From positions 42-64,041 of the forward strand of contig CAZPQJ010000003.1 of NCBI GenBank assembly GCA_964588955.1: DNA of 64,000 bases. Direction: 5' to 3'. The position numbers and the translations under genes are program-made. The notes under the pieces are model-generated. The model saw only the letters and a list, made by a program, of their open reading frames with translations, was not told where the DNA came from and searched no databases. Origin of the DNA: an uncultured Gammaproteobacteria bacterium (lineage in GTDB: Bacteria; Patescibacteriota; Patescibacteriia; UBA9934; CAMTUG01). Of the stretch, positions 5,035-50,785 are shown in pieces; position 1 is the stretch's first letter; each line of letters starts with the position of its first letter.

Positions 5035-5793
5035 ATGCCAAATCGAGCAAAAGCACAGTCAACTAAAGACGGCAAGACCTTTCTCAAAGAACGTTTTATT
5101 GACGTCGAGAAGGTGTTTGTAACAAAACTGAAGGCAGATCAACGTGCTATCACTCATGATGGAGCCCTGGGGGACACCACAGAAGATTCGTGGATTGAGC
5201 TTCTTCAGCGGTATCTTCCTTCTCGTTATAAAGTTGCTAAAGCTTTCGCGGTGGATCACTTGGGAAATACCACGCAACAACTTGATTGTCTGATTTTTGA
5301 TGCGCATTTTACTCCGGCACTATTCGGAAAGGATAAGAACCTGTACGTTCCAGCAGAAGCTGTTTACGCAACTTTTGAAATTAAACAAACGGCAAATGCC
5401 ACCCATCTGAAAGCGGCGGCAAAAAAAGTTGCGTCGTTGCGTGCGTTACAACGCACATCTGTTCCTCTTACATACGGTAAAAAACAAAACCCGGCGAAAA
5501 AGCCCTTCCCGATCATCGGCGGTCTGATCTCCATGAACGCGTCGTGGAAAGGTGGTTTGGGATCAGCTTTCTTGACTCAGTTCGACTCGTTGAAAAAAGA
5601 AAAATCTCTTGATCTTGTACTTACGGCGGAGCACGGATTTTGCGACCATCTTACGCCCGCCAATGAACGCGAGGTTGTAACAGGACCCGGTTCCTTACTG
5701 CGAGGATTATTTCGTCTGCTTGATAGTCTCAGGTCTCGGGCGTCGGTAGTTGCGATCGATTGGAAAAAATATGAGGCTGTATTTGAGGACTAG
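5035..5793 (+). CDS. nucC: NucC-like restriction-endonuclease-fold (PD-(D/E)xK) nuclease, the CBASS effector.
   Basis: A PD-(D/E)xK arrangement is visible (LDCLIFD ... YVPAEAVYATFEIKQ). Long colinear similarity to E. coli NucC, as far as recalled from memory, is seen in WIELLQRYLPSRYKVAKAFAVD, KVASLRALQRTSVPL and PIIGGLIS. The gene sits 4 nt after the TRIP13-like stop codon. Confidence 0.7.
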   Translation: MPNRAKAQSTKDGKTFLKERFIDVEKVFVTKLKADQRAITHDGALGDTTEDSWIELLQRYLPSRYKVAKAFAVDHLGNTTQQLDCLIFDAHFTPALFGKDKNLYVPAEAVYATFEIKQTANATHLKAAAKKVASLRALQRTSVPLTYGKKQNPAKKPFPIIGGLISMNASWKGGLGSAFLTQFDSLKKEKSLDLVLTAEHGFCDHLTPANEREVVTGPGSLLRGLFRLLDSLRSRASVVAIDWKKYEAVFED

Positions 5794-6296: not shown

Positions 6297-6439
6297 AAAA
6301 TCAGGGTTAATTTTAACTTGAGACACACCCCGTTTTCGTGTCTCATTTGTCTCATTTTGCCATGTGACCCGGGTGCTCGCACGACCCCCTAAAAAATCGC
6401 TCTGGGGGTTAAGGGAAATCAAGTTCTGTACCCGCCCGG

Positions 6440-6479
6440 GGAGCCAACAATGCCTCAGCAGAAATGCTGGGGTTTTGTT
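6440..6479 (+). terminator. Copy 1 of a 40-nt direct repeat holding a GNRA-tetraloop hairpin followed by a U-tract; it looks like an intrinsic terminator.
   Basis: The repeat is ggagccaacaatgCCTCAGCAgaaaTGCTGGGGttttgtt. It has an 8-bp stem (6453-6472) with a GAAA loop, then TTTTGTT. Confidence 0.5.
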
Positions 6480-6530: not shown

Positions 6531-6884
6531 ATGAAAAAGAGTTTGATTGTTGGATTGTCTTTACTCGGCCTTCTTGTGTTATACGCCTTTGGAATGTTCG
6601 GGTGGGAAATGTATGTACAAGCCACGCAATTGCCGCGAGTTGAACAAGAAATGGGAATTGATTTGGGAACTCCGGAAGTCGATGGCCGTGAGGTGATTCA
6701 GTTTGTTCGAGTTGATGAAGATGGAATCGCATATCATGCAGGTGTACGTAAAGGTGATGTTCTCAACCAGTCATCGTTAGCTGAATTTGTGAATGCGTAT
6801 CTTGATGCTCAGCGATCCTTTTCATTTGTTGTTTTACGCGAAAATCAGAATGTGACAATTGTCATAGAGAAAGACACGCAATAG
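6531..6884 (+). CDS. Membrane-anchored PDZ-domain protein.
   Basis: An N-terminal TM/signal segment (MKKSLIVGLSLLGLLVLYAF) is followed by a PDZ-like segment (GIAYHAGVRKGDVLNQ). Confidence 0.55.
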   Translation: MKKSLIVGLSLLGLLVLYAFGMFGWEMYVQATQLPRVEQEMGIDLGTPEVDGREVIQFVRVDEDGIAYHAGVRKGDVLNQSSLAEFVNAYLDAQRSFSFVVLRENQNVTIVIEKDTQ

Positions 6885-6991
6885 GTAAAGAGGATTGTTT
6901 AATATCAAATCAAATCTACCCCTGCGAATTTTTGGGATGCTGATGTAGTCCCCATAGTCCACAATCGCGGTTCTAACACGCTCCACGACGC

Positions 6992-7033
6992 GGAGCCAAC
7001 AATGCCTCAGCAGAAATGCTGGGATTTTGTTTT
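6992..7033 (+). terminator. Copy 2 of the 40-nt hairpin/U-tract repeat.
   Basis: Apart from one G/A change, the sequence is identical to 6440-6479. It lies downstream of the PDZ gene and immediately upstream of the next MKKSL-leader gene. Confidence 0.5.
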
Positions 7034-7063: not shown

Positions 7064-7465
7064 ATGAAAAAATCTTTAGGAATCGCCGTGGGTGTTGCTG
7101 TCGTTGCGCTGCTGGCGGGAATCATTGGCATTATTGTGCGCATCGTCCCTGATGCTATTTACGTTCATGACGTCACTGCAGACGATTCCGCGTACCTTAT
7201 TCTGTACAAAGATACCGTTCTTACGTCTTATGGCGATATGGTCGCGGAGTCTGTTGTAGAGAATCAGGACGGCGAGATGCTTGTGTTGAAGTACAAAACC
7301 CCTGGCGAAAAGGGTGGAAATTTTCGTCGCGTTCTGAATATTACTGGTGATACCGCGGCGTTAGACGGCGTGGAGTATTCGCGCGTGTCTTCTTGGAATG
7401 TGTTTCAGCCGGCGCTTTACCAAACGCCGTTTGCGTACTTTTTGACGATTTTTTTGATGCGATAA
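7064..7465 (+). CDS. Hypothetical membrane-anchored protein, a paralogous MKKSL leader.
   Basis: The leader reads MKKSLGIAVGVAVVALLAGIIGIIV. It is preceded by the same repeat as the PDZ gene. Confidence 0.5.
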   Translation: MKKSLGIAVGVAVVALLAGIIGIIVRIVPDAIYVHDVTADDSAYLILYKDTVLTSYGDMVAESVVENQDGEMLVLKYKTPGEKGGNFRRVLNITGDTAALDGVEYSRVSSWNVFQPALYQTPFAYFLTIFLMR

Positions 7466-37990: not shown

Positions 37991-38932
37991 CTAAGCAAGA
38001 AAAAGTCGGTTCTTTTTTTCAACGACCAAATGATCCTGAACCATACGAGCAATCATGGCACGCAGCCAGGCATCGTCTTGGTGCGGATCAAAGATTGGAT
38101 CGATGGCGGATCCAATGTTTTTGATCAGTTTTCCATTGATGGACTCTCGCACCAGTTTTAATATCCTCCCGCGATAAATGCGGTCGGGATATTTTTTGTT
38201 ACGGTAGATTTTTTCGTTGGACTTTTTGATCATCGCTTTCGGTGTCTTGATTCGACCAGACAAAAACTTGTTTGCGGCTGGACACACCTCCCGCAGAGGA
38301 CAGTTGGCGCAGTCAGGCACTTTTTTACAAACGCTGGTGGCAAGGTCGAACAAGGCTTGGGGGACGAGATCAAAGTCGTTGCCTGACAAAAGTTTTGTCG
38401 ATTGCTTGCGAATTTTTTCGTCGAGCAACGGATCTGGAAACGTTACGCCCAGCAACAATCGGTCGAGGACGCGGCGGATGTTGGTATCAATCGGCATCAC
38501 GCGCTCCGCTCGTGTAAACACCGCTAATGCCGCAGCAGTGTACGGACCAATCCCTTTATAGTCTAGCCAGTCGTTAACAGTTTTTGGCTTTCCAACTTTT
38601 CCGCTTAGTATTTGTTTGGTACTTCGAATTTCGGATTTAGTATTTATATGTTGCCGCGCAATATCCCTCAAAGCGAGTGCTCGTCGATTATATCCAAGCC
38701 CCGCCCAGGCTCGGATCACCTCGCTGTTCGATGCCTCCGCCAATTTCGACCAAGTGGGAAACTGTTTCAGCCATTTTTTGTAATACAACAACACCCGCGG
38801 CACTTGCGTCTGCTGCAACATCATCTCTGAAACAAGAATTTTATACGGATCCCGTGTCCGTCGCCATGGCAAATTTCGTCCGTTTTTCTTGTACCAGGCA
38901 AGTAACTTACGGTCGGTGAGCATAGTGGACAA
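37991..38932 (-). CDS. mutY: A/G-specific adenine glycosylase (MutY / EndoIII family, HhH-GPD with 4Fe-4S) carrying an in-frame repeat-derived insertion.
   Basis: HhH (LDYKGIGPYTAAALA) and a Cys cluster (CKKVPDCANCPLREVC). Residues KSEIRSTKQILSGK are encoded by a copy of the 55-nt intergenic repeat. Confidence 0.8.
   Translation of the reverse strand: MSTMLTDRKLLAWYKKNGRNLPWRRTRDPYKILVSEMMLQQTQVPRVLLYYKKWLKQFPTWSKLAEASNSEVIRAWAGLGYNRRALALRDIARQHINTKSEIRSTKQILSGKVGKPKTVNDWLDYKGIGPYTAAALAVFTRAERVMPIDTNIRRVLDRLLLGVTFPDPLLDEKIRKQSTKLLSGNDFDLVPQALFDLATSVCKKVPDCANCPLREVCPAANKFLSGRIKTPKAMIKKSNEKIYRNKKYPDRIYRGRILKLVRESINGKLIKNIGSAIDPIFDPHQDDAWLRAMIARMVQDHLVVEKKNRLFLA
38596..38650 (+). repeat. Copy A of a ~55-nt repeat, lying inside the mutY coding sequence.
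   Basis: cttttccgcttagtatttgtttggtacttcgaatttcggatttagtatttatatg is near-identical to 41579-41636. Confidence 0.7.
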
Positions 38933-39997: not shown

Positions 39998-41497
39998 ATG
40001 ATGGTATTTAGCGTTCGAAAAGGGGATTTAACAAAAGAGAAAGGGGATCTGCTCGTGGTTAACGTTTTTGAGGGCTGGGATAAGACAGCTGGAGCTACGG
40101 GTGCTGTTGATAAAGCCCTAAAGGGCTTGTTGACAACGGTCGCTCGCGAAGATCAGTTTAAAGGCAAACTTGGTGAAGTGCTATTTTTACGCACGCATGG
40201 TCAGATTCCGGCTAAACGTGTGATGGTGGTCGGGCTTGGAAAAAAAGAGGAGTTTTGCGAAGAAACCGTTCGCGAAGTCGCTGCCGTGTCACTGAACCAA
40301 GCAGAAAGAATTGGTGCCAAAACGGTTATTTCTATTTTGCACGGTGCGGGAGCGGGAAAACTTGCCCCAAAGATTTCTGGAAAAGCAATGGTTGAGGGAG
40401 TGCGTTTGGCCGCTTACACGTTTGACGAATACAAAAAACAAAAAGCAGCACCAAAGGTGCAGGCATTCTCGATCGTCTCAAACGATGGACGCGATGTTGC
40501 ACAAGCGGCACTCGGTGTTCAGGTTGGCGAATTAAATGCTAAAGGAACCATGCTTGCGCGCCATCTCGTTAATACGCCATCGGGTCACATGCAACCAGCC
40601 ACACTTGTGGAAACGGCTCGCCGTATTGTACGCGAAAGCAAAGGAGCCGTAACGATGAAGGTGTACGATTACGCCGCACTGAAAAAAATGGGAGCTGGTG
40701 GTCTTCTCGGTATTTCGCAAGGCTCGGATCATCCGCCGGTGATGGTGCACCTTCGTTACGCTCCACGAGGTGCCAAGAAACATGTTAGCCTTGTCGGCAA
40801 GGCGATTACCTTTGACTCCGGTGGATTGTCGATTAAACCAGCAGAAGCCATGTACACCATGAAGTGCGATATGGCCGGTTCTGCGGCCGTGCTCGGCGTG
40901 TTTGATGTAATTGCTAAAGAGAAGCCAAAAGTAATTGTTGATGGCATCTTTGGAGCTTGTGAAAACTTGCCATCTGGTAAGGCAATTCGCCCGGGCGATG
41001 TGGTCAAAACACTCAACGGCAAAACCATTGAGGTGTTGCATACGGATGCTGAGGGGCGGGTAACATTGGCGGACACACTCGCTTATGCCGCGCGCTTGAA
41101 GCCGGATGCGATTGTTGATTTGGCTACCTTGACTGGCGCCTGCATGGTGGCGCTTGGTGAAGAAATTTCTGGCGCTATGAGCAACAACAAAAAATTGGTT
41201 GGTAAAGTACTTGCCGCGGCGGAGTCGGCCGGGGAGAAGATGTGGGAGTTGCCGCTGGAAAAAAACTACAAAAAGGAGATCAAGTCAGAAGTGGCAGACT
41301 ATCGCAACATCGCCGGACGTTGGGGTGGAGCGTTGACGGCTGGATTACTGTTGGAAGAATTTGTTGACGGCTTGCCGTGGGTGCACCTCGACATCGCCGG
41401 CCCTGCTTTTGCGGAACGACCATTGAATGCGTATACGTCTCGAGGTGGATCGGGGGCGGGAGTGAGGACACTGTTGGAGTTTCTTCGAAGTTATTAG
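39998..41497 (+). CDS. pepA: Leucyl aminopeptidase (M17).
   Basis: NTPSGHMQP, the metal-site region VGKAITFDSGG, and HTDAEGRVTLADTLAYA are M17 signatures. Confidence 0.85.
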   Translation: MMVFSVRKGDLTKEKGDLLVVNVFEGWDKTAGATGAVDKALKGLLTTVAREDQFKGKLGEVLFLRTHGQIPAKRVMVVGLGKKEEFCEETVREVAAVSLNQAERIGAKTVISILHGAGAGKLAPKISGKAMVEGVRLAAYTFDEYKKQKAAPKVQAFSIVSNDGRDVAQAALGVQVGELNAKGTMLARHLVNTPSGHMQPATLVETARRIVRESKGAVTMKVYDYAALKKMGAGGLLGISQGSDHPPVMVHLRYAPRGAKKHVSLVGKAITFDSGGLSIKPAEAMYTMKCDMAGSAAVLGVFDVIAKEKPKVIVDGIFGACENLPSGKAIRPGDVVKTLNGKTIEVLHTDAEGRVTLADTLAYAARLKPDAIVDLATLTGACMVALGEEISGAMSNNKKLVGKVLAAAESAGEKMWELPLEKNYKKEIKSEVADYRNIAGRWGGALTAGLLLEEFVDGLPWVHLDIAGPAFAERPLNAYTSRGGSGAGVRTLLEFLRSY

Positions 41498-41498
41498 G

Positions 41499-41623
41499 GA
41501 AATCCGAAATTCGAAGTACCAAATCCGAAACAATCGGAAAAAGGAAAATCCCAATCGGAAAACTGTTTGGGACTTTTCTTTTTTCCGATTAGAATTTGTT
41601 TGGTACTTCGAATTTCGGATTTC
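41499..41623. repeat. 125-nt palindromic repeat element: 25-bp inverted arms around a structured ~75-nt core. It is the likely bidirectional terminator between pepA and the peroxiredoxin gene.
   Basis: The arms are gaaatccgaaattcgaagtaccaaa (41499-41523) and tttggtacttcgaatttcggatttc (41599-41623). The right half (41579-41636) matches the copy inside mutY. Confidence 0.7.
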
Positions 41624-41669
41624 GAATTTAACATCCAGCCTACGCCGGTTTTAAGTTTACAAAACAATC

Positions 41670-42194
41670 CTAAGCCTTTCCGAGTGACTCCGTCCCCGGC
41701 TCCCACTCCATTTGGCAGAGCTCACCAGACTGCAATGCCTCGACCACACGCAGGGTCTCTTTGACCGAACGCCCGACCGATCCAGCACTTACGAGAGCGT
41801 ATTTAACGATTCCTTCCGGATCAATCACAAACAGTCCGCGTTCAGAAAGGCCGTCTTTTTCGTTATACACGTCATACGCTTTAGAAACGGCGTGGGTAGT
41901 GTCGGCGAGCACGGGGTATTCCACTTCTTTCAAGTCGCGCTCAAACCAGTTTTTGTGGCTCCACTCGGAATCTGTCGAAGCACCAACGACTTCGCAGTTC
42001 ATCTTTTCGAATTCGGCGCGGTGAGCGCTGAAGCCTTTAATCTCTGTAGGGCAGATAAAGGTGAAGTCGCGGGGGTAAAAGAAGAATACCAACCACTTAC
42101 CTTTGTAATCCGCTAAGCTCACCGAGTGAAACTCACCTTTGTGGTAAGCCATCACGTCTTTAAACTCCGGTGCCGGTTGTCCAACATGAATCAT
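41670..42194 (-). CDS. Peroxiredoxin, typical 2-Cys AhpC/Tsa family.
   Basis: Peroxidatic Cys in FTFICPTE and resolving Cys in GELCQMEW. Confidence 0.85.
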   Translation of the reverse strand: MIHVGQPAPEFKDVMAYHKGEFHSVSLADYKGKWLVFFFYPRDFTFICPTEIKGFSAHRAEFEKMNCEVVGASTDSEWSHKNWFERDLKEVEYPVLADTTHAVSKAYDVYNEKDGLSERGLFVIDPEGIVKYALVSAGSVGRSVKETLRVVEALQSGELCQMEWEPGTESLGKA

Positions 42195-49260: not shown

Positions 49261-49401
49261 GGTGCCTCCTAGGCGGATGTGGCCGTTTGGCCGTTTGTGG
49301 CCTTATGGCCGGGTGATTGGACTGACTGCCGACTTTATATTAGACGGCCCAAAGGCCTAAAAGTCGATTTAAGTCAGCTCAAAAAATTATCACATTTTTT
49401 T

Positions 49402-49444
49402 ACTTTTGTCAATGGCTAATGATGCTGAAGCTATTGACAAAAGT
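49402..49444. promoter_or_regulatory. Perfect 12-bp inverted repeat (ACTTTTGTCAAT ... ATTGACAAAAGT), a candidate operator in the AT-rich divergent promoter region of the GC-rich island.
   Basis: Each arm contains TTGACA. The region 49300-49576 is AT-rich and sits between two divergently oriented GC-rich genes. Confidence 0.5.
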
Positions 49445-49576
49445 GTATTTTTATGCTAGTTTTTTAAGTCGGTTTTTCGTTGCTGGACAGTTAAAAACAG
49501 CTCGAAACGCCGTAGAGTTTCTGTTCACAGATCGATTCTGATCCACCCGCATCTTCAAACTGCCCAAGGAGGCACC

Positions 49577-50785
49577 ATGGCACTTTCCATCGACCAGGCC
49601 GCTGATCTCTTTGTTAATGCCTTCACGAACCCCGTCAAGCCGCTCACCCGCGGGGAGGTCGGGGAGCTGAAGGTACACATCAACGAGGCCGGGCGGGTGA
49701 TCCGGGGGGAGATCGGGAACACCCCGTTCTTCGACGCGATCCTCGCTATTCCTGCAATGGACGAGGCCATGCAGCTCCTGAGCGATCTCGCCCAGGCCAC
49801 CGACGACCTCCAGCGGGGGACGATTCTTGCCGGGAAACCGGCAAACGTCGTCACTAACGCCGGAAAGTTCTTCAAGGTGGCCACGCCGGCGGCCGCACCC
49901 CCCGCGACTCACGGACCGGCACCTGGTGCCCCTCCCGTGGCCGTGCCTCCGGTTCCGCCCGGAATCGGTGGGCCGGTTCCTCCCACTCCGCCCGCTCCGG
50001 CCAACCCGCCCGCAGGAGCACCGGCCCCGGCACCGGCACCGGCACCGGCACCGGCACCGGCACCGGCACCGGCACCGGCACCGGCCAACCCCGCACCCAC
50101 TGGGGCACCGACCGGTGGGGCGACGAGGCGTGCCTTCTCCCGTCTAGGAGCGAGGGTCGTCGCACAAGGAGGCGCGAGTCCGGTGCCCGTGGCCGCCCCG
50201 GCCGCGGTCGTCGCGGCGACGCCTGTCGCAGTCGCAACCCCTGCGGCGGCAACGGTCGCGGCAGCCACCCCGGTCGCCGCAACCACACCGGCTCCGGCGA
50301 CCACCCCGGTCGCAGGAACACCGGCAGCGGCGGCCGTCGTGGCGTCCTCCGCGCCCTCTCAGGGACGGAGCTGGTGGATGTGGGGCTTCCTCGGCCTCGC
50401 AGCCATCGGCCTCGTCGTCTGCTGCGGTGGGGGAGGAGTCTGGGGCTACCGCTCCTTCTTCTCCGGCAACGGGGAGAAGGTCGAGGCTGCGACCGAGGCT
50501 CACGCCGAAGTCAAGGTCAAGCCCTCCGAGATCAAGGGGGACGGGACGGTCGCGCTCGAGGCGGTCCCGATCGAGACGCTCGCTGCGACCGTCGCGGGCA
50601 AGGAAAACCTCTGCAACCTCTGCAAGGAGGGAGCGGAGGCGCCCGATCCCGCCTGTCCGAGCCAGGATCTTGGTCCCGCGGCCTGCGCGGCCATCCAGGA
50701 CATCTGCGACCAGTGCGAGGATCACCGCACCTACTGGAAGCGATGTGACGCCATCATCCGGCGTCACATCAACAACCTCCGGTAG
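49577..50785 (+). CDS. Hypothetical membrane protein: an N-terminal domain, a Pro/Ala-rich linker, one TM helix and a Cys-rich C-terminal domain.
   Basis: (PA)n low-complexity region; TM WWMWGFLGLAAIGLVVCCGGGGVWGY; the C-terminus reads CNLCKEG...CPSQDLGPAACAAIQDICDQCEDH. Confidence 0.5.
   Translation: MALSIDQAADLFVNAFTNPVKPLTRGEVGELKVHINEAGRVIRGEIGNTPFFDAILAIPAMDEAMQLLSDLAQATDDLQRGTILAGKPANVVTNAGKFFKVATPAAAPPATHGPAPGAPPVAVPPVPPGIGGPVPPTPPAPANPPAGAPAPAPAPAPAPAPAPAPAPAPANPAPTGAPTGGATRRAFSRLGARVVAQGGASPVPVAAPAAVVAATPVAVATPAAATVAAATPVAATTPAPATTPVAGTPAAAAVVASSAPSQGRSWWMWGFLGLAAIGLVVCCGGGGVWGYRSFFSGNGEKVEAATEAHAEVKVKPSEIKGDGTVALEAVPIETLAATVAGKENLCNLCKEGAEAPDPACPSQDLGPAACAAIQDICDQCEDHRTYWKRCDAIIRRHINNLR
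50020..50078 (+). repeat. Hexanucleotide microsatellite (GGCACC)n, about 9 units, encoding (PA)n.
   Basis: Visible tandem run ccggcaccggcaccggcacc... lying in-frame within the CDS. Confidence 0.8.

Follow-up and report, generated by a model that had tools for sequence, protein, structure and literature searches.

The window, which here denotes the whole 64-kb stretch of DNA that was analysed, contains a gene for a MutY-like adenine glycosylase in which about 50 nucleotides closely resemble one half of a palindrome lying between two other genes. This arrangement raises the question of which of the two sequences was the donor, and whether the additional residues serve a DNA-repair enzyme or are only carried by it. 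A sequence-only reading of the window had taken the segment for a MITE/REP-like element domesticated as a coding insertion. The evidence assembled here indicates that one arm of a palindromic repeat was inserted in frame and is probably tolerated as selfish DNA.

The glycosylase gene and the repeat arm within it

The gene (37991-38932, minus strand), which belongs to an uncultivated bacterium of Uhrbacteria type, encodes 313 residues from a TTG start codon, and the reading frame is open over its full length, as was originally described. The 313-residue product itself has no exact protein record; the form on record is the database protein P0001 of 310 residues, which starts at an ATG three codons later. 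Homologs are found in Candidatus Uhrbacteria and other Patescibacteria. HhH-GPD is the sole domain detected by a Pfam scan, residues 7-226 match the catalytic domains of MutY structures in the PDB (E 1.9e-33), and the best Foldseek matches to the predicted model are MutY and MUTYH. The PDB match aligns the VSEMMLQQTQV and PIDTN stretches with the regions of E43 and D144 in Bst MutY. Glu36, Asp149, Asn151 and Cys202/208/211/217 either show no variation within the family or align with catalytic or cluster residues of the MutY of Geobacillus stearothermophilus; all 120 orthologs have the four cysteines (C202, C208, C211 and C217), which correspond in the alignment to the [4Fe-4S] cluster motif of MutY.

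The match to MutY is confined to the catalytic part of the protein. The NCBIfam mutY model (TIGR01084) gives 183.9 bits against a cut-off of 286.5 and is covered at profile positions 4-220 of 277 only, and no MutY C-terminal (NUDIX-like, 8-oxoG-recognition) domain was detected by sequence in the Pfam and PDB searches. The earlier assignment of the gene as mutY therefore stands for the catalytic domain and not beyond it, and the protein is called MutY-like rather than canonical MutY because of the sub-cut-off score and the absence of a detectable MutY C-terminal domain. The C-terminal ∼85 residues (window positions 37991-38250) are predicted to be mostly helical, with residues 250-313 forming three helices and a short hairpin in an AlphaFold2 model. 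A conserved, mostly helical C-terminal domain (KKYPDRIYRGRIL...) is common to all 120 orthologs.

Comparison of repeats within the 64-kb window revealed that positions 38597-38646 and 41581-41630, both read on the plus strand, are identical at 46 of 50 nucleotides (92%) without a gap, in agreement with the near-identity first noticed between the segment and the right half of the intergenic palindrome. The coordinates first proposed, 38589-38650 and 41579-41636, pointed to the right place and were a few bases too wide. The 24-mer TTTGGTACTTCGAATTTCGGATTT has three copies in the window (38615 and 41599 on the plus strand, 41500 on the minus strand) and none in 100 shuffles. An HMM of the repeat family (nhmmer) matches the arm in the gene at E 7.5e-08 and detects three arms only over the 64-kb window, which are those of one full element and the solo arm of the glycosylase gene. 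Beyond the shared 50 nucleotides, identity falls sharply, to 11% over 36 nucleotides on one flank; the other flank has 42% identity over 36 nucleotides (15/36, ungapped; shuffle p ∼0.03), which is treated as not significant. A similarity continuing for ∼36 nucleotides into native mutY sequence (GKKKSPKQFSDW compared with GKVGKPKTVNDW) was rejected, as it amounts to these 15 of 36 positions in the ungapped register and its p value is post hoc.

The arm is read in frame on the minus strand, where the ORF translates as ..HINTKSEIRSTKQILSGKVGKPK.. immediately ahead of LDYKGIGPYTA. It encodes approximately residues N97-G111 (NTKSEIRSTKQILSG), and the net gain over insertion-free orthologs is 45 nucleotides, or 15 codons, so the reading frame is kept. 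The sense strand of the arm is its A-rich strand, and the 15 extra residues are therefore hydrophilic. ORF translation, codon comparison and the structural model all confirm the proposed in-frame position of the segment, in the loop that precedes the helix-hairpin-helix (HhH) motif, and the earlier estimate of a loop ∼14 residues longer than that of E. coli MutY is close to the 15-residue gain.

Repeats can mislead metagenome assemblers, and a score below the mutY equivalog cut-off might be taken as the sign of a gene decaying to a pseudogene. However, Logan per-run assemblies from SRR16481186 (L001, 13,360 nt) and SRR16481187 (L002, 3,404 nt) have 0 mismatches to the window across the region, and because two separate run assemblies are identical to it, an assembly artefact or chimera is unlikely. 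The ORF is intact and keeps all family-invariant residues, and its low mutY score reflects the non-MutY C-terminal domain of the whole family rather than decay. A chimera or a pseudogene is, on these grounds, very improbable.

The intergenic palindrome, identified by palindrome search and folding, is a full-length element of 125 nucleotides (41499-41623) that forms a long imperfect hairpin between the stop codons of two convergent genes. The stop codon of the leucyl aminopeptidase gene pepA (39998-41497, plus strand) is 2 nucleotides before the element, and a peroxiredoxin (AhpC/TSA) gene (41670-42194, minus strand) flanks it on the other side. The outer arms of 25 nucleotides (41499-41523 and 41599-41623) are 100% complementary, and pairing runs inward to a small loop near 41560. 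Folded as RNA, the element reaches -75.7 kcal/mol compared with -31 ± 3.4 kcal/mol for shuffles (z = -13). Its right arm (41581-41630, plus strand) is the closest relative, within the window, of the segment in the glycosylase gene and forms with it a direct repeat 2,984 nucleotides apart, and its left arm (41500-41541) forms with the same segment a 42-nt inverted repeat that is 81% complementary. Between the two copies of the 50-nt direct repeat lie pepA, a 292-residue ORF and the 5′ portion of the glycosylase gene; together with the inverted pairing to the left arm, the repeat could allow deletion or inversion of the intervening genes.

The intergenic copy may act at the 3′ ends of its neighbors as a terminator or a stabilizer of mRNA; a canonical terminator role is unsupported, as an intrinsic terminator scan of 41300-41800 gave no terminator-like site. 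A scan of the whole window at Rfam gathering thresholds returned no match, and a permissive scan related the element only to generic long-hairpin precursors of plant miRNAs, far below threshold, so it was rejected as a member of a known RNA family.

The window contains further repeats of other kinds. A 43-nt repeat (6437-6479 and 6989-7031; 95% identical, 552 nt apart) includes a hairpin, made of an 8-bp stem and a GAAA loop, with TTTTGTT directly behind it, and each copy lies ∼50-35 nucleotides upstream of a small ORF starting with MKKSL (6531-6884 and 7064-7465). The repeat is a possible leader or terminator common to small genes that are paralogs. At 49378-49468, an AT-rich inverted repeat has 40-nt arms, 73% complementary, on either side of an 11-nt spacer; a role as operator or as divergent promoter region is possible. 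GC-rich 18-nt tandem repeats (CCGGTCGCNGCAAC-like units) occupy 50202-50321, with related units at 49972-50013.

The palindrome family and the direction of transfer

The exact 20-mer core of the element, AAATCCGAAATTCGAAGTAC, occurs at 40 loci (42 matches in the tally) in the GTDB representatives, a set of 596 Gb in which ∼1 chance match to a 20-mer is expected. In 36 of the 42 matches, the core is followed by the next 12 nucleotides, GAAATCCGAAAC (with at most 3 mismatches), or by a variant one heptad shorter, and this extension constitutes independent evidence because it lies outside the searched pattern. The hosts belong to the Planctomycetota (Gemmata, Kuenenia and others), Omnitrophota, Verrucomicrobiota, Lentisphaerota (Lentisphaerae/Kiritimatiellia), Deltaproteobacteria and Patescibacteria, the last with Saccharibacteria, Gracilibacteria, Shapirobacteria, Parcubacteria and Uhrbacteria. 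The core that recurs across phyla is 20-32 nucleotides in length, and conservation of primary sequence across phyla can be followed in loci L007-L046 and in window positions 41499-41623.

The arms of the family, ∼55 nucleotides each, are built from degenerate 7-nt units (GAAATCC GAAATTC GAAGTAC ...) in variable number, and the elements end in GAAATCC...GGATTTC (end sequence GAAATCCGAAAT). Most copies are hairpins, which measure ∼110-180 nucleotides where the fold delimits the element cleanly; solo arms make up about one quarter of the copies, with ∼11 of 41 lacking a partner arm. Several 8-kb loci in other genomes carry two to five arms, placed in unremarkable intergenic spacers. The family is overwhelmingly intergenic, and other copies are likewise situated downstream of ORFs or between convergent ORFs.

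It is the distribution of the family that points to a putative mobile element. No transposase or IS was seen adjoining the copies in the window, and by eye none is apparent between the element pairs of L033, L035 and L041. A REPtron-like arrangement was rejected for these three loci, since the ORFs between the close pairs look like ordinary genes. No direct repeat that could be a target-site duplication flanks 38597-38646, and none is evident at the borders of the family hairpins listed. The exact core has no match in IMG/VR, and the element has no blastn match among PLSDB plasmids and INPHARED phages. A search of JGI metagenomes with the window-specific variant GTACCAAA gave two matches, which were set aside as they look like chance or unrelated coding sequence. 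A protein-database search with the translated consensus, a synthetic query in three frames, yielded two weak matches from 33 candidates, too little for a count of in-frame insertions. Literature searches that extended to CPR, Planctomycetes and Omnitrophica gave no description of the family. The element is a hairpin-forming palindrome with terminal inverted repeats, in line with its initial description as MITE/REP-like; it departs from that description in that no target-site duplication was seen, the ends have no GTAG/CGTC tag and the family is not private to one genome.

The direction of transfer can be read from the orthologs, which were compared in an alignment (A3) of 120 Uhrbacteria-type MutY-like proteins. 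The segment from LRD to KGIGPY consists of 29 residues in 93 of the 120 orthologs and of 44 in the window protein. The nearest orthologs, P0007 and P0004, are 72-74% identical to it outside the loop, in a sample whose nearest available relatives are all at most 75% identical, and both have a native loop of 14 residues. At the codon level, QHI[NTKSEIRSTKQILSG]KVGKPKTVNDW of the window gene aligns with QVAERGAPKSVDEW of the P0004 gene, and the net difference is exactly 15 codons gained. Synteny extends over the P0004 locus (L047), with genes for SOD, peroxiredoxin and PepA, two small ORFs and the glycosylase, and this locus has neither the insert in the gene nor the intergenic copy. Its genes for peroxiredoxin and PepA directly adjoin each other, and at the corresponding place the window has ∼176 extra bases, the palindrome included. 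As L047 is without either copy and the nearest orthologs are without the insert, both copies in the window are lineage-specific gains and the gene is the recipient of the repeat.

The orthologs, the L047 locus and the mainly intergenic family thus bear out the insertion of a palindromic repeat into the gene, and not the reverse. Alignment with orthologs, which the sequence-only reading had suggested as a check, bounds the insert at approximately N97-G111 and finds it missing from the closest orthologs; the same reading had named orthologs with the same extra residues, in genomes free of intergenic copies of the repeat, as the case that would speak against it, and no relative has the window insert. 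An ancestral loop, in which the extra residues would be old in the MutY lineage and the intergenic sequence would derive from the gene or resemble it by chance, could draw on the weak flank similarity (42% over 36 nt), which is not significant at a post hoc p of ∼0.03. It is scarcely credible, given that the residues are missing from the nearest orthologs, that the intergenic copy is one member of a large family unconnected with mutY and that the 24-mer, with three copies against none in 100 shuffles, excludes chance.

The loop ahead of the HhH motif

The AlphaFold2 model, built on the 120-sequence alignment, has a mean pLDDT of 93.2 and a pTM of 0.88. Its only weak stretch comprises residues ∼101-120 (pLDDT 58 for block 101-110 and 78 for block 111-120). 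The site of the insert is a surface loop between a long helix (82-96) and the first helix of the HhH motif; in the model, the helix extends over residues 82-101, reaching into the insert, and is followed by a loop. Structure prediction, another check proposed at the outset, therefore places the insert as a low-confidence surface excursion on a confident MutY catalytic fold, at a position that, by comparison with HhH-GPD structures in general, is probably far from the bound DNA. As RNA, the loop-coding region with its half element has a folding energy of -9.4 kcal/mol and no notable structure; the mRNA cannot form the hairpin of -76 kcal/mol because only one arm is present.

Coding insertions of the family have arisen elsewhere. 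P0063 (L003), a MutY-like protein from another lineage of Uhrbacteria with 57% overall identity to the window protein in A3, has the 20-nt core at this very loop too, but in another reading frame (KNPKFEVRNPKKIRKIQ), which gives NPKFEVRNPK compared with KSEIRSTK in the window protein and appears, from these sequences, to be an independent event. The family is also in frame in the C-terminal subunit of a Saccharibacteria transketolase (L024 3245-4312, minus strand), with KSEIRSTRPAGRTDGGKSETNSKFNIQNSKQS at the start of the Transketolase_C domain, and in a 504-residue Trans_reg_C protein of Patescibacteria (L046 3998-5512, plus strand), where the insert adjoins a second, unrelated repeat that translates as ..SVIPAKAGIQ... 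The A-rich strand is the sense strand in all four coding cases (the window gene, P0063, L024 and L046), and selection may favor hydrophilic translations of the repeat. A long ORF in a Phycisphaerae MAG seems to read into an element (L025 ∼5723-5779, minus strand; ..SKRGNPKFEVRNPKQARMTEIHK..), which may extend or replace the C-terminus of the gene.

The loop before the HhH motif receives other sequences as well. All 21 internal insertions of at least five residues in the 120 orthologs map to reference residues 95-118, and none occurs elsewhere. The loop inserts are mutually unrelated and mostly palindromic: those of P0002 (L050) and P0003 (L049) are GC-rich double hairpins of -43 and -49.5 kcal/mol, that of P0088 (L051) is a TKQS...FTRND palindrome of -37.6 kcal/mol, that of P0021 (L052) is an A-rich stretch with a 7-nt period, and that of P0033 (L053) is 24 residues long. 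P0063 and P0088, which are syntenic and share 87% identity outside the loop, have different elements in it. The loop may be permissive as no other site is, or it may capture palindromic DNA by preference, and its repeated use could reflect targeting rather than mere tolerance.

The position of the insert next to a DNA-binding motif, and in frame, is what lends appeal to functional domestication, in which the 15 residues would be kept for a new property, such as an additional contact with DNA or protein beside the HhH motif, or the sequence would act in cis as a DNA or RNA motif. Many orthologs have some insert at this loop, so that extra length there is at least not harmful. The window insert, however, is found in no other sequence, and the inserts of the loop differ in sequence, length and frame, which is a pattern of tolerance rather than of selected function; the low model confidence of the insert and the lack of notable RNA structure in the half element also argue against a new role. 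There is no sign of selection for the insert, as no relative shares it. We therefore find the term 'domesticated' unsupported for a low-confidence surface excursion that relatives do not share, and domestication itself unlikely.

According to the preferred reading, that of a tolerated, selfish insertion, a one-arm copy of the palindromic repeat entered the coding sequence at the surface loop before the HhH motif. The gain of 45 nucleotides keeps the frame and leaves the core of the enzyme unchanged, and the hydrophilic NTKSEIRSTKQILSG, a floppy surface excursion, would be borne as selfish or neutral DNA in the one place of the gene that accepts insertions. The insert is probably neutral, and the enzyme probably remains active. 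The arm may have arrived by transposition followed by loss of the other arm, or by direct capture of one arm through template switching or repair.

A related scenario dispenses with transposition and views the insert as a local copy error, in which 50 nucleotides would have been copied by template switching or as filler DNA in break repair, with the intergenic element at a distance of 3 kb, or some other copy, as their source. The closest copy is indeed just 2,984 nucleotides off and in direct orientation, a single arm is present with no visible target-site duplication, solo arms are common in the family (∼11 of 41 without a partner) and no transposase is apparent between the element pairs in L033, L035 and L041. 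Local copying nevertheless has to contend with the arrival of the family in the same loop of a distant ortholog and in other genes and genomes, which requires a recurrent process, and with flanks that have no significant homology to guide a switch. We regard it as possible and somewhat doubtful.

Relation to known repeats and significance

Among the known systems, the RPEs of Rickettsia bear the closest comparison. RPEs are palindromic repeats present between genes and in frame in unrelated housekeeping genes, where they keep the reading frame and reportedly do not disturb how the host protein folds and works (PMC10969869). The review regards RPEs as selfish DNA that coding sequences tolerate, with in-gene elements of ∼150 bp (PMC10969869). 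The family described here is similar in that palindromic repeats of ∼100-150 nucleotides lie between genes and in frame inside functional genes, also in L003, L024 and L046. It differs in its host, which is Patescibacteria instead of Rickettsia, in the insertion of one 50-nt arm instead of an element of ∼150 bp, in the 7-nt periodicity of its arms and in its span of many phyla. The relation to RPEs may thus be seen as a functional analogy only.

REPs are defined as imperfect palindromes of 20-40 nucleotides with a GTAG or CGTC tag at one end (PMC3733652). Some members of the GTAG and CGTC superfamilies lie wholly within ORFs, many of them in genes for replication and repair (Di Nocera et al. 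2013, PMC3733652), and two species of Xanthomonas have different REPs at nearly the same position in recB (PMC3733652). The recB case parallels the repeated insertions in one MutY loop, whereas the arms of the present family are longer (∼55 nt), end in GAAATCC and have no terminal GTAG or CGTC. REPINs provide a further likeness, as they too are pairs of inverted arms that fold into a long extragenic hairpin, in many cases where convergent genes meet, and copies are dispersed in several genomes. REPIN/RAYT families, which are mobilized by RAYT transposases, are typically lineage-specific and vertically inherited; the primary sequence of the present family, in contrast, is shared across phyla. 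ERIC, Correia/NEMIS, BOX and Nezha MITEs are likewise small non-autonomous repeats with occasional in-frame fusions to host ORFs. Characteristic of these MITEs are defined terminal inverted repeats, duplication of the target site and a cognate IS transposase, and none of these is seen for the insert in the glycosylase gene: the intergenic copy has terminal inverted repeats in its perfect 25-nt outer arms, and the copy in the gene has one arm only.

In-frame colonization of essential genes by palindromes is best documented in Rickettsia, and the locus described here exhibits the same process in the reduced genomes of CPR bacteria, in a case that concerns a DNA-repair enzyme. One loop of the HhH-GPD fold is very tolerant of insertions, which is of use for protein engineering and for reading orthologs of odd length, and annotators are warned that a repeat can be the origin of additional residues in proteins of CPR bacteria. 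A broader and more tentative proposal joins two claims, namely that the window element belongs to an apparently undescribed family of 7-nt-periodic palindromes with a cross-phylum core (AAATCCGAAATTCGAAGTAC GAAATCCGAAAC), and that the MutY loop is an actively targeted landing site for unrelated palindromes that replace one another; taken together, we hold these to be conceivable, though the odds are against them. If confirmed, the cross-phylum family and the single-loop hot spot would matter more than the insertion itself, as they bear on how such elements move and choose their targets. The cross-phylum core would then imply that the element spreads horizontally between uncultivated bacteria that occur together, or that it has a conserved partner acting in trans, and the targeted MutY loop would be the CPR counterpart of the RPE phenomenon in Rickettsia, with a site-specific twist.
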